A stretch of 10,337 bases of DNA from Thermoplasmata archaeon. GTDB taxonomy: Archaea > Thermoplasmatota > SW-10-69-26 > JACQPN01 > JAJPHT01. The stretch spans positions 1 to 10,337 of the forward strand of contig JAXDQU010000112.1 in the NCBI GenBank assembly GCA_034667685.1, read 5' to 3'. The notes under the pieces were generated by a model. It ran no database searches, was not told the origin of the DNA, and saw nothing but the letters and a program-made list of their open reading frames with translations. The position numbers and the translations under genes are program-made. The first letter of the stretch is position 1, and the number at the start of each line of letters is the position of its first letter. Below, one piece after another: positions 3,758 through 6,830 of the stretch.

Positions 3758-4522
3758 ATTCTTCGCCAGCTCGCGCACCGCGTCCTCCTCGACGAAGTGC
3801 AGGTTGCCGGGCACGACCAGCGTATGCAGCGGCGGCCCGAAGTCGCGCTTCGCCAGCGCCTCCAGCGTGCCGCGCCAGACGCCCGGCTCGGGGCTGCCGG
3901 CGCGCGCCAGCGCGTAGACCTCCAGCTCCGGCGGCAGCGCCCCCTCGCCGCGCTCGCGCTCCATGCGTGATAGCAATGCCGCGCCCTCCGAGGCGGTCAT
4001 GTAGCGCCCCTCCGCCGCGCGCAGGTCGAGCAGCGTCAGCGTGTGCAGGCCGCGCGCGCGGTTGTCGCGGATCACGTCGTACGGGCTCGTGGGGAAGTAG
4101 CTCCCGTCGGGGAAGACCACGGTCGTCGCGCGGCCGAACTTGTAGCTCATCAGGCCCAGGAGGCCCGCCGCCGCCGTGGCGATGCTCGCGCCGTGGACGA
4201 CGCGCGTCGGGATGCCCTCGCGCGCCGCCCGCACGCGCAGGTCCACGTGCGTCGTCGCGGTCATGCTATCGCCCACGGCGAGCAGCACGACCTCCTTCGT
4301 GCGCGCGGCCTCGATCAGCTCGTCGCCCTTCTCCAGCGGGTCGCGCGTGAGCCAGTGGACGTCGCGGCCGTAGAACGCCACGAGCTTCTCGGGCGAGGCG
4401 CCGCCCAGGTGGGCCGTGTACCACTCGCCGTAGACGACGTCCGCCGCGCGCACGATCTCCAGGCCGCGCACCGGGACGTCCTTCTCGTCCCAGAGGCCCA
4501 GGCCGACGAAGGTGAGGCTCAC
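3749..4522 (-). CDS. dph5: Diphthine synthase (diphthamide biosynthesis methyltransferase)
   Basis: LTFVGLGLWDEKD, EWYT, VGDSMTATTHVDL, VVHGASI, GLMSYKFGRATT, N...GLHTLTLLDL, ARAGS and DFGPPLHTLVVPG.LHFVE motifs; 257 aa. Confidence 0.95.
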   Translation of the reverse strand: MSLTFVGLGLWDEKDVPVRGLEIVRAADVVYGEWYTAHLGGASPEKLVAFYGRDVHWLTRDPLEKGDELIEAARTKEVVLLAVGDSMTATTHVDLRVRAAREGIPTRVVHGASIATAAAGLLGLMSYKFGRATTVVFPDGSYFPTSPYDVIRDNRARGLHTLTLLDLRAAEGRYMTASEGAALLSRMERERGEGALPPELEVYALARAGSPEPGVWRGTLEALAKRDFGPPLHTLVVPGNLHFVEEDAVRELAKNVT

Positions 4523-4543
4523 GGAGCGCGAGCCCAGGAAGCG

Positions 4544-4552
4544 CCCTTAAGC
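4544..4552. promoter_or_regulatory. Palindromic TATA-like box (CTTAAG) shared by divergent dph5 and amine oxidase genes
   Basis: The only TATA-like element in the gap, centred about 26 nt from dph5 GTG (4522) and about 28 nt from ATG 4577. Confidence 0.55.
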
Positions 4553-4576
4553 ATGGCGACGCGCCCCAGCGTGACG

Positions 4577-5866
4577 ATGGATGCGGACGTTCTCGTCATC
4601 GGCGCCGGCGTCGCGGGGCTCTCGGCGGCGCGCCTCCTCGCGGACGCGGGGCAGCGCGTCGTGGTGCTGGAGGCGCGCGACCGCGTGGGCGGCCGGTGCG
4701 TGACGGACCATACTCTCGGCGCGCCGGTGGACCTGGGCGCCGCGTGGCTGGGCTCCGCGTCGGAGAACCCGCTCGTGGACCTCGTCGCGTCCGCGGGCGG
4801 CCGCACGCGCGCGTGGGACTGGTCGAGCACGACGCTCTTCGACGCCGAGGGCCACGCGATGCCGGAGGACGAGGTGGCCCGCGTGCGCGACGTCTTCGAC
4901 GAGGTCGTGCGGCTCCTCGAATCGCGCAAGTCGCGCGGCCTCCCCGAGCACGACCAGGCGCAGGCGGTGGACGCGCTCCTCGACGCGATGCCCCTCGCGC
5001 CCGGGCGCCGCGCGGCGGTGCGCTGGTGGGCGTCGATGCAGCTTGGCATGTTCCAGGGCGCGGACCTGCGCACGCTGAGCGTCAACGCCTACGGCGCGGA
5101 GGAGGACATGCCCGGCGACGACCGCTCCGTTCCCACCGGGTTGGGCGCGTGGGCCGTGACGCTGGCCGAAGGGCTCGACGTGCGGCTCGCGCACCGCGTG
5201 TCGCGCGTGCGCCAGACGGACGAGGGCGTCGAGGCCGAGACGGACCACGGGACGTTCCGCGCGCGCCGGGCGATCGTCACGCTCCCGCTGGGCGTGCTGC
5301 GCGCCTCCGCGGTCGCGTTCGAGCCTCCGCTCTCCGCGCGCAAGCTCGACGCCGCGAAGCGCCTCGGCGTGAGTGTCATGGACCGGGTCGTCCTCCGCTT
5401 CCCGCGCGTCTTCTGGCCCCCGACGCGGCGCTTCGGCATCGTGGACGAGCCCAAGGCCGAGTTCGTCGACCTCGCGCGGGACGCCGGGGTCCCGCTGGTG
5501 GCACTCCTGACGAAGACGACGCGCGCGGAGATGGACGAGGCGCGCACCGACCACCAGGCCGTGAACGAGGCGATGCGTCTCCTGCGCCGGATGATCCCCG
5601 ACGCGCCGGACCCGACCCACGCCATCGTGACGCGCTGGGCGCGCGATCCCTACGCGCGCGGCAGCTACGTGCACACGCCGCCGGGCGCCACGGGCCAGGA
5701 CTACGCGACGATGGGCGAGGCCGAGGGACGCCTGCACTTCGCGGGAGACGCCACGAGCCAGGAGCTTCCAGGCACGACGTGGGGCGCGTGGAAGGAGGGG
5801 AAGCGCGCGGCGCGCGAGGCGCTGCGGGCGCTCCACGCGGAGCTGGCGCTCAGGGAAAATGAATGA
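4577..5866 (+). CDS. Flavin-containing amine oxidase (MAO/PAO/LSD1 amino_oxidase family)
   Basis: DVLVIGAGVAGLSAA (GxGxxG), EARDRVGGR, DLGAAW, IVTLPLGVL, W.RDPYARGSY and LHFAGDAT motifs. Start at ATG 4577 (alternatives 4571 and 4553). Confidence 0.92.
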   Translation: MDADVLVIGAGVAGLSAARLLADAGQRVVVLEARDRVGGRCVTDHTLGAPVDLGAAWLGSASENPLVDLVASAGGRTRAWDWSSTTLFDAEGHAMPEDEVARVRDVFDEVVRLLESRKSRGLPEHDQAQAVDALLDAMPLAPGRRAAVRWWASMQLGMFQGADLRTLSVNAYGAEEDMPGDDRSVPTGLGAWAVTLAEGLDVRLAHRVSRVRQTDEGVEAETDHGTFRARRAIVTLPLGVLRASAVAFEPPLSARKLDAAKRLGVSVMDRVVLRFPRVFWPPTRRFGIVDEPKAEFVDLARDAGVPLVALLTKTTRAEMDEARTDHQAVNEAMRLLRRMIPDAPDPTHAIVTRWARDPYARGSYVHTPPGATGQDYATMGEAEGRLHFAGDATSQELPGTTWGAWKEGKRAAREALRALHAELALRENE

Positions 5867-5895
5867 AAAAAACGAGGGCCGGCGGAAGCCGGCCC
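5866..5895 (-). terminator. Hairpin plus U-tract terminator for the CxxC-x17-CxxC gene
   Basis: Minus strand reads GGGCCGGC-TTCC-GCCGGCCC-TCG-TTTTTTT, followed by further T-rich sequence. It starts about 11 nt after the TAA at 5907. Confidence 0.7.
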
Positions 5896-5906
5896 GAGAT
5901 GCTCGC

Positions 5907-6165
5907 TTAGAAGCGGCGGGGCGAGCGCGTTTCGCCCGGAGGCGAAACGTGCGAGCGCGCCGCTTCCAGCGCGCCTATGGCGCGCGTAGAAGCGGCGCGG
6001 GCCGCGGGAGTCGCGGGGGGGCGCGTGCTTCTGGAAGCAGTCGCGGCAGTACACGGGGCGGCCCTCGGTCGGCTTGAAGGGGACCTGGGTCTGCTTGCCG
6101 CAGTCGCTGCAGACGGCGTTGTGCATCTCGCGGGGGCCGGAGGGGCCACGGTTGTTACCGTACAT
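5907..6165 (-). CDS. CxxC-x17-CxxC zinc-finger protein (59 aa, codons 6165-5989) whose stop codon (TAA 5907-5909) is displaced by a 79-nt insert
   Basis: PREMHNAVCSDCGKQTQVPFKPTEGRPVYCRDCF has the exact CxxC-x17-CxxC spacing, followed by the usual Arg-rich tail ending PRRF. The 154-aa extension looks spurious. Confidence 0.85.
5908..5999. repeat. 79-nt structured insert with 11-nt direct repeats and two hairpins
   Basis: TAGAAGCGGCG occurs at 5908-5918 and 5987-5997. Hairpins at 5956-5999 (about 20 bp) and 5928-5949 (9 bp). GCGAGCGCG is repeated at 5921 and 5951. Confidence 0.8.
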
Positions 6166-6265
6166 CGGATTCTACTTTCCTGACCCTGGATTCTGACGAC
6201 TTGGCCCCTTGCGAGGGTCAGGTGACGAACTCGGATCAAGCATTGCCAAGACGGCATCCTTTAAC
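6166..6265 (-). promoter_or_regulatory. TATA-like box (GTTAAAG, 6259-6265) and ~70-nt structured 5' leader
   Basis: AT-richer intergenic region. Perfect 9-bp inverted repeat at 6179-6187/6214-6222, plus an alternative GCAA-tetraloop hairpin at 6205-6216. Confidence 0.5.
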
Positions 6266-6299
6266 TACTTGTGGGTCACCGGGCCGGGAATACGGGGCC

Positions 6300-6830
6300 T
6301 CAGGCGTCATGGAGCAGGGCCACGCCGGTGCTGGCGGCCAGGAGGAAGCTGACCGGGACGCTCGCATCGTTGTTCGCCTCGCCCGGGCCCTCGGTCGCCA
6401 GGCCGGTCGCGTCGGATTCCGCGTGGAGCGTGACGGTCCCGACGATGCCGGTCCCGTCCCAACGGAACGTGGCGGGGAAGCTCGCGCCGGCGGCCAGCGA
6501 CGGGACCACCAGGTCGCTCAGCGCGTGCGCCCCCGCCGAGTCGGAGAAGCTCAGCCGCAGCGCGGGCGCGGCGCCGCCGTGGTTGGCGACGAGGACCGTG
6601 ACCTCCTTCGCCTCCGGGTCGGTGGCGCCGGCGGCCAGGGGCGCGTCCCGCGCCGCGATGCCGTCGACCATGAGGTCGGGGAGCGTCGGGTCGCGCACCA
6701 GCACGCGCCCCAGCATCGTGGCGTGACGGTGCCCGGCGCGAAGGCGAAGCCGTGGACGTGGACCGTGGTGGTGGCGCCACCGCTGCCATGGGCGAGCGGA
6801 GCGGAGGACGAGGATTGGGACGAGGCGCAC
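6300..6830 (-). pseudogene. CARDB (Ig-like) domain protein with damaged N-terminus, probably a relic of signal peptide + cupredoxin + CARDB; the frame is still open (176 aa)
   Basis: CARDB motifs LPDLMV, VTVLVANHG, VPSLAAGAS...F.WD and E..EANN. The segment 6802-6722 reads sensibly only in the +1 frame (APLAHG...VHVHGFAFAPGTVT). Confidence 0.6.

Follow-up and report, generated by a model that had tools for sequence, protein, structure and literature searches.

How does a gene end when its last sense codon is followed by TAC in place of a stop, and when a second copy of its own terminus lies 79 nt downstream, beyond a strongly structured stretch? This question is raised by a small zinc-ribbon gene on the minus strand of the window, the DNA analysed here, which is the entire 10,337-nt contig C112 of an archaeal genome assembly (G000; 3.48 Mb, 71% GC, 124 contigs). 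We followed the locus in a sister species (G003) and in the relatives G001, G002, G004, and G007. A sequence-only reading had placed the structured element between the last sense codon and the stop, and had proposed a recoding or processing signal, a site-adapted miniature element, or a template-switch accident. The best explanation, and in our view a probable one, is an ordinary gene ending in PRRF-TAA with a DNA-level gene-terminus insertion module behind its stop.

The zinc-ribbon gene and its stop codon

The open reading frame starts with ATG at 6165, and its codon 59 is TTC (5991-5989). It scored 77.7 bits against TIGR04272 (cut-off 36) and 76.6 bits against PF23477 (cut-off 27), and the four cysteines at CxxC-17-CxxC spacing are visible in its translation, which makes it a member of this family. 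Small proteins of the CxxC-x17-CxxC type are reported to bind zinc and to have eight paralogues in Methanosarcina mazei (PMC12704099). Read with TAA at 5986-5988, the window's gene encodes 59 aa, a small protein by the standard of this family (about 60-85 aa). The neighbouring genes in the window matched profiles for Trm5/TYW2, a diphthine-synthase-type methylase, and a YGR210-type GTPase. Ribosomal protein S28e, whose family was detected in the archaeal control genomes only, was found in G000, and a search for tmRNA returned none, both in line with an archaeon. A 198-nt metatranscriptome contig (run X10) was identical to window positions 6010-6207, which cover the 5' UTR and most of the zinc-ribbon CDS; it ends 11 nt short of the palindrome and gives a weak hint that the gene is expressed.

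In the window, TTC is followed by TAC (5988-5986) and the frame is open to a stop at 5701, which would give 154 aa. The apparent absence of a stop depends on one base, 5986. We compared the contigs of four public runs (X1, X2, and X3 and X10, three of DNA and one, X10, of RNA) with window positions 5650-6350. Run X1, which holds 0.96 of the sampled window words, gave a 4,389-nt contig (depth 9.41) that matched 5956-6350 with a single difference, at 5986, where the plus strand reads G in the window and T in the contig, giving TAA in the mRNA sense. Run X2 gave a 157-nt contig (depth 3.89) that also reads T on the plus strand at 5986, again giving TAA. This second contig represents another haplotype, with 8 differences in 150 nt and the same hairpin X (Table 1). 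The window base was carried by no X1 or X2 contig, with one contig per run covering the site, 5986 lying 31 nt from the contig end in both runs, and contigs rather than reads being compared, which yields no allele frequencies. In runs X3 and X10 the site falls outside contig coverage. No Logan contig bridges 5956-5959 with 31 nt on each side, a coverage gap that is evidence neither way.

The sister species showed the same stop. Its orthologue, 95% identical over the gene, reads PRRF-TAA followed by the same module, both in the G003 genome contig and in a continuous 180-kb G003-like metagenome contig (L019). Among 16 homologous ORFs with a readable 3' end, counted without the ORF of the window itself and without one truncated by the end of its contig, nine end in RRF-stop, including all eight of the other copies from the genus. 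In the G003 assembly the orthologue is split over two contig ends (the end of C7 and the start of C22) with a 97-nt overlap inside the gene, and L019 is continuous across it. The public record of G003 is labelled Proteobacteria bacterium, though it is placed in the same genus as the archaeal genome of the window.

Position 5986 stands directly after a GGCGCGC run, within a GC-rich palindrome and at its foot. Inverted repeats and GGC are reported to trigger sequence-specific Illumina miscalls (PMC3141275). TAA is very probably the true or majority state at 5986-5988, and the TAC of the window would then reflect either a rare allele or a wrong base in the consensus, a one-base assembly error being the most likely source of the non-stop reading. 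Judged from these comparisons, the gene most likely encodes a normal 59-aa zinc ribbon ending in PRRF-TAA, with the 79-nt unit after the stop. With TAA at the first copy the protein is complete, and no recoding, bypass, or excision is needed. The open 0 frame described earlier is therefore present in the window as assembled but is contradicted by the X1 and X2 contigs and by G003, and the element lies behind the stop, not between the last sense codon and the stop.

It is unlikely that TAC is real in this strain, where it would amount to a stop loss with a non-stop or read-through message and either a damaged gene or an extended protein. The assembled contig does read TAC, and the comparison was made at the level of contigs, which drop rare variants, and not of raw reads. 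However, TAA appears in every X1 and X2 contig covering 5986, the X1 contig being otherwise identical to the window, and the sister species reads TAA as well. The 154-aa frame would also continue beyond the T7 terminator and run antisense through the convergent flavin amine-oxidase gene. Small-protein and recoding screens on metagenome-assembled genomes should take this as a warning: a single miscalled base at a palindrome is enough to make a normal gene of 59 aa look like a 'non-stop' ORF of 154 aa.

The 79-nt unit and its orthologous sites

The unit consists of two direct copies of the gene end (T1 and T2), an inverted copy between them (rcT), and two hairpins (X and B), in the order T1, hairpin X, rcT, hairpin B, T2, and then the original terminator. 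The direct repeat is exact over 11 nt (5987-5997 and 5908-5918, start to start 79 nt on the minus strand) and reaches 15 nt with the TAA allele. The second gene-end copy runs into a TAA that is in the +1 frame because 79 mod 3 is 1. The inverted arms 5956-5966 and 5989-5999 are 100% complementary over 11 nt, the inner hairpin has arms at 5925-5936 and 5941-5952 around a 4-nt loop, and the 9-nt direct repeats of hairpin B lie at 5921-5929 and 5951-5959. The repeats, inverted arms, hairpins, U7 terminator, and +1 frame of the second TAA are all in the sequence as the earlier reading described them, and the inverted arm is able to pair with either PRRF copy.

Table 1. Features of the zinc-ribbon locus in the window and of modules with the same layout elsewhere in G000.
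Feature	Position	Strand	Basis or detail
Zinc-ribbon CDS, 59 aa, CxxC-x17-CxxC, C-terminus ...GPRRF	5989..6165	-	TIGR04272, PF23477
Stop-codon position	5986..5988	-	TAC in window; TAA in run contigs and sister species
T1, gene-end copy joined to the gene	5983..5997	-	11-nt exact repeat 5987-5997; 15 nt with TAA
Hairpin X, apex of the T1:rcT palindrome	5969..5985	-	7-bp GC stem, ATA loop; sequence, folding
rcT, inverted gene-end copy	5956..5967	-	complementarity of 11 nt with T1, 9 nt with T2
Hairpin B with flanking 9-nt direct repeats	5921..5959	-	9-bp stem 5928-5949, UCCG loop
T2, displaced direct gene-end copy with own TAA (5907-5909)	5904..5918	-	continuous with ancestral downstream flank
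Terminator-like hairpin (5876-5895) and T7 run (5866-5872)	5866..5895	-	repeat search, folding
Convergent flavin amine-oxidase gene	4043..5866	+	PF01593, 218.7 bits
Seven G000 modules, 1 to 4	C84:8765-8903; C12:59749-59878; C111:12900-13001; C61:2671-2773		
Seven G000 modules, 5 to 7	C21:92325-92474; C118:55587-55701; C45:295-444		
FttA/aCPSF1 module, G000			repeat 38 nt
LSm module, G000			repeat 24 nt; similarity continues up to the stop
Membrane-protein gene module, G000			repeat 21 nt
tRNA-Leu module, G000			repeat 17 nt
tRNA-Val module, G000			repeat 16 nt
Thermosome module, G000			repeat 15 nt
tRNA-Ile module, G000			repeat 15 nt

A 151-nt stretch across the unit folded at -91.9 kcal/mol, compared with a mean of -64.4 (sd 3.88) for shuffled sequences (z = -7.09), and none of 200 shuffles was as stable. 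The Rfam search returned five matches with E up to 1, all far under the gathering score (best 25.3 bits vs 111). In a blastn-short search of G000, the 79-nt unit and its two hairpins matched only themselves, apart from short matches of 12-22 nt. The exact pattern of hairpin B matched once among public genome contigs (G003) and once among metagenome contigs (G003-like), and no spread of this hairpin beyond the G003 lineage was seen in those collections. Since the window's hairpin B has no second copy in G000, the unit would be assigned to the class described below by its layout and not by shared sequence.

The G002 orthologue (83% identity) showed an empty site, the check proposed earlier for an insertion, with the whole unit absent. 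The G002 gene end aligns to T2, the next 6 bases, and the terminator of the window. Because the G002 gene end runs directly into the flank that follows T2 in the window, we read the unit as an insertion, which would be common to G000 and G003; the other possibility is a loss in G002. In G003 hairpin B is conserved with a UGCG loop, and the apex of the first palindrome differs from that in G000 by paired changes on both arms. The second G003 copy reads ...TTCTG, with the stop lost, and is followed by a T run. Immediately past the T run of the terminator (window 5860-5870; L019 from about 1560 onward) G000 and G003 are no longer syntenic, and their convergent downstream genes differ, that of G000 being the amine oxidase.

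The same layout at other gene ends

We scanned the G000 genome for k-mers that occur twice, 30-130 nt apart, with their reverse complement between the two copies. The scan gave 5 loci at K=11, 13 loci at K=10 (1-3 in three second-order Markov simulations), and 55 loci at K=9 (19-26 in the simulations). A bare direct/inverted/direct triple of 9-mers is not rare in a 71% GC genome, so the weight of the argument lies on the G003 orthologue and on modules of the same layout, and not on the repeat count alone.

After extension, seven of the nine loci with repeats of at least 14 nt showed the order T1-X-rcT-B-T2 (Table 1). The repeat ends 0-3 nt from a stop codon or a tRNA 3' end in all eight modules, that of the window included. 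Over all modules, the repeats measure 9-45 nt and the whole elements 64-135 nt. The thermosome module was missing in all five relatives compared, and extra copies of the FttA gene end were found in 4 of 30 genomes of the phylum, that is, in four of eight from the window's family and none of 22 outside it. Judged by sequence layout, the 79-nt unit is one of a recurring class of gene-terminus duplication modules that is restricted to the family. The genome-wide search suggested by the sequence-only reading, for modules carrying an inverted copy of their own flank, thus found the layout at no fewer than seven other gene or tRNA ends; because the class recurs, a one-off template-switch accident is not supported. 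No published description of such gene-terminus modules was found at the level of titles and the first lines of abstracts.

Some further loci resemble the modules in part. In G000 the 3' ends of two tRNA-Arg genes (C8:40260-40399 and C11:62205-62270) are repeated in direct orientation 50-125 nt further downstream; GC hairpins separate the copies, and there is no clear rcT. A CxxC paralogue in G004 (C222, L003) has a Gly/Arg-rich tail and a TGA within a 9-bp hairpin. Its gene end recurs as a 15-nt copy some 80 nt further downstream, which makes it a second, independent case in this gene family. Several aragorn tRNA predictions in G000 (Gly, Pro, Tyr, and Glu) contain 'introns' of 1.4-2 kb and are probably artefacts of the intron option.

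Hairpin B was shared between unrelated targets. An identical 48-nt hairpin B occurs in the thermosome and tRNA-Ile modules of G000 (C118 and C45), and near-identical copies occur at five further targets in G003, namely the ends of thiolase, tRNA-Met, AAA-ATPase, and GatE genes and the 5' end of a homoserine-dehydrogenase gene. Among 15 genomes of the order, the C118-type hairpin was found with up to 3 mismatches in G000 only. In the modules of this B family, B is immediately flanked by rcT on its 5' side and by T2 on its 3' side, and T1 is always the copy next to the gene body. The homoserine-dehydrogenase module (region of G003 C15:211970-212019) stands in antisense orientation at the 5' end of its gene; its 14-nt repeat begins exactly at the ATG, and the inverted copy overlaps the GGAGG upstream of the start.

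At the FttA gene the modules form arrays. The order T1-unit-T2-unit-T3 was found in G004 and G001 and two units were found in G007, while G003 and G002 had none. Within the arrays, every rcT is a better match to the T copy on its upstream side than to the downstream copy, and no rcT accompanies the final T. Directly after the third FttA gene-end copy on G004 C130 (L042/L069) lies a tandem array of about six 20-nt GC-rich units.

The displaced copies retain their coding state. The peptide and the stop were kept in all seven extra FttA copies, and in the G007 FttA copies 8 of 11 codons differ, all eight synonymously. Copies in which T spans 33 nt showed 25 synonymous vs 4 non-synonymous codon changes, a count that covers the FttA arrays, LSm, and thiolase. 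Four rows whose repeat is shorter than the 33-nt comparison span were left out, namely two CxxC modules, the membrane protein, and the thermosome; they hold 2 synonymous and 20 non-synonymous changes, mostly outside the repeat, and with all rows included the raw total is 27 vs 24. The mainly synonymous differences indicate that the displaced gene-end copies evolved as coding sequence. Divergence of this coding type fits the arrival of a block, made up of a gene-end copy, X, rcT, and B, in front of the resident end, and fresh local copies decaying neutrally would not fit it.

We compared the two strands over 19 modules. G:U pairs made up 27 of 825 pairs in the sense strand and 29 of 823 in the antisense strand, and the sense strand was the more stable in 11 of 19. 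With pairing and stability symmetric between strands and one module antisense at a 5' end, the palindromes look like DNA features and not transcript structures. The modules show recurrent, lineage-restricted duplication of exact core-gene termini (FttA/aCPSF1, thermosome, LSm, thiolase, GatE, and tRNAs), by a process that keeps the displaced copies coding-competent and re-uses one hairpin at unrelated targets.

Possible origin of the modules

Cis-mobilizable elements are cargo-less derivatives of integrated elements that duplicate att sites. Integrative elements are reported to have att sites at the T-stem-loop or 3' end of tRNA genes and to reconstitute the gene after integration (PMC8371274). 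The modules are similar to such archaeal and bacterial tyrosine-recombinase elements, as their repeats cover the 3' part of a tRNA, from the T-loop to the last base, or the end of a protein gene. In both cases the gene is reconstituted and intact, with a direct repeat over its terminus, the displaced end lies downstream, tandem accretion occurs, and relatives have empty sites. Unlike att elements, a module measures only 64-135 nt in all and has no integrase, and its own target is present within it as an inverted copy adjacent to a hairpin. In addition, a single hairpin family is used at unrelated targets, which should not be possible with a sequence-specific integrase.

The folded single-stranded attP of CTX-phi is described as having opposite att copies and a spacer, with a stem that mimics the duplex target, and its integration as leaving an inverted and a direct att copy beside one junction (PMC3089051). 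The rcT-B-T2 order of the modules resembles this arrangement, as well as the attP of IMEX and the attC of integrons, and in the B-family modules inverted and direct copies flank a spacer at one junction. However, those systems use one fixed site (dif or attI) with Xer or IntI, whereas the modules have many unrelated targets and almost no cargo, and a recombinase is only a putative participant.

From these likenesses, we infer that the module is a gene-terminus insertion cassette of an att-like or folded-hairpin type. A small cassette with its own copy of a conserved gene terminus and with palindromic arms would recombine within the terminus. It would supply a new functional gene end and push the resident end downstream, as in att-type duplication, and repeated events of this kind would build arrays. 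Both the recombination within the terminus and the import of cassettes belong to this proposal and are not direct observations. Against it, the module carries no recombinase gene, one recombinase could hardly recognise such unrelated targets, the two tRNA-Arg cases have no clear rcT, and the model offers no explanation for the gain of a new T together with a matching rcT.

The search for an enzyme or a parent element covered the genus genomes. The module itself contains no recombinase gene. Tyrosine-recombinase genes (PF00589) numbered five in G000, three in G003, two in G004, and zero in G001. The direct repeats around the five G000 integrase genes, and second copies of the adjoining tRNA ends, were searched for and gave nothing convincing, the contigs being short. 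Within G000 there was no free or larger element with any T copy, and no third copy of any T elsewhere, save chance matches of one 14-mer. On G000 C25 an integrase gene (35611-36108) adjoins tRNA-Val(tac), and another integrase lies near tRNA-Ser on C78.

A bolder form of the proposal, which we put forward tentatively and think possible though rather less likely to be right than wrong by some distance, is that the modules are miniature mobile DNA of an archaeal family, for which 'gene-terminus cassettes' would be a fitting name. The target would be written as a gene-end copy and an inverted complement flanking a shared hairpin, and the same backbone would be re-aimed at unrelated tRNA and housekeeping termini, replace the terminus with a coding-competent copy, and stack into arrays. 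One possible route would be a folded-hairpin attP that imitates the target duplex; another would be the use of the spare gene-end copy as a portable homology arm. If targeting is indeed encoded in nucleic acid, the cassettes would represent a new, very small kind of site-specific mobile DNA and a possible source of programmable integration. The site-adapted miniature element of the sequence-only reading, with its target duplication and inverted flank copy, is partly supported, by the empty site in G002, the layout at seven or more other ends, and the shared 48-nt B; terminal inverted repeats and a duplication of fixed length were not present.

Alternatively, the unit may be a purely local mutational product, made by fold-back or template switching at a quasi-palindrome with no mobile or imported DNA, and would have persisted neutrally in both G000 and G003. 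Snap-back synthesis would make two nested palindromes of the kind seen in T1-X-rcT and rcT-B-T2, the window's hairpin B is single-copy in G000, and the paired changes at the G003 apex are what hairpin-templated correction would give. We nevertheless consider this origin improbable, since the layout recurs at many termini, different targets share an identical B, the gene boundary is where the repeats invariably end, and the displaced copies differ almost only at synonymous sites, unlike neutral local copies.

A functional RNA element in the 3' UTR is still more doubtful. In such an element rcT would pair with T1 or T2, and the pairing could serve as a terminator/antiterminator, stabilise the mRNA, or act as a switch by masking the stop codon. 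The very stable fold (z = -7.09) with two alternative pairings, its conservation in G003 with a T run after it, and the RNA-library contig described above, as a weak hint of expression, speak for this role. However, G:U pairs (27 vs 29) and stability (11 of 19 in sense) are strand-symmetric over the 19 modules, a module of the same layout lies antisense at the 5' end of homoserine dehydrogenase, and the G002 orthologue has no module.

We give very little credit to a single-strand hairpin transposon of the IS200/IS605 or REP type, in which a greatly lengthened guide, rcT on the 5' side of hairpin B, would pair with the target T and insertion would follow right after T. The ends of IS608 are built in the order target, linker, guide, hairpin, and second copy of the cleavage site, and the order of the module would match this by analogy. 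Against it, the Y1 transposase (PF01797) was found in none of the four genus genomes and was detected in six control genomes, and in the arrays rcT matches the upstream T and not the T on its own 3' side, which is the opposite of the prediction. The modules share with REP/REPIN, MITE, and IS200/IS605-derived palindromes their small GC-rich hairpins just after genes and a dispersed hairpin family (two copies in G000 and five in G003). Unlike these elements, they lack terminal inverted repeats, their repeats (9-45 nt) are not target duplications of constant length, their copy number is very low, no Y1 transposase accompanies them, and their flanks are gene-end copies. A MITE was rejected, as the window's unit has no second copy and repeat lengths vary (9-45 nt), a REP/RAYT or IS200/IS605 derivative for want of a Y1 (HUH) transposase in the four genus genomes, and an IS110-type bridge-RNA element because the DEDD transposase PF01548 was found in 0 of 4 genus genomes.

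Programmed recoding or processing, by bypass between the PRRF copies, a +1 frameshift, or excision of 79 nt of RNA, has almost no probability left: matched codons do stand 79 nt apart with a strong hairpin between them and removal of 79 nt gives a clean 59-aa ORF, but TAA at the first copy (run contigs and G003) leaves nothing to rescue, the G003 second copy has no stop, so that bypass or splicing there would destroy the ORF and a conserved landing or splice site is excluded, no joint skipping 79 nt was seen in the contigs of the four runs (three DNA and one RNA, the RNA contig ending at 6010), no Rfam family reached its gathering score, and G:U pairs showed no strand bias. Programmed bypass in phage T4 gene 60 takes place between matched codons on both sides of a structured gap. 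The window has matched codons flanking a structured gap in the same way; unlike in gene 60, its take-off site is followed by a true stop with the protein already complete, and its landing copy is not conserved in the sister species.

G000 also contains another repeat family, seen on C25 as a 33-nt exact repeat (39-71 and 55632-55664) with an inverted copy beside the second site.
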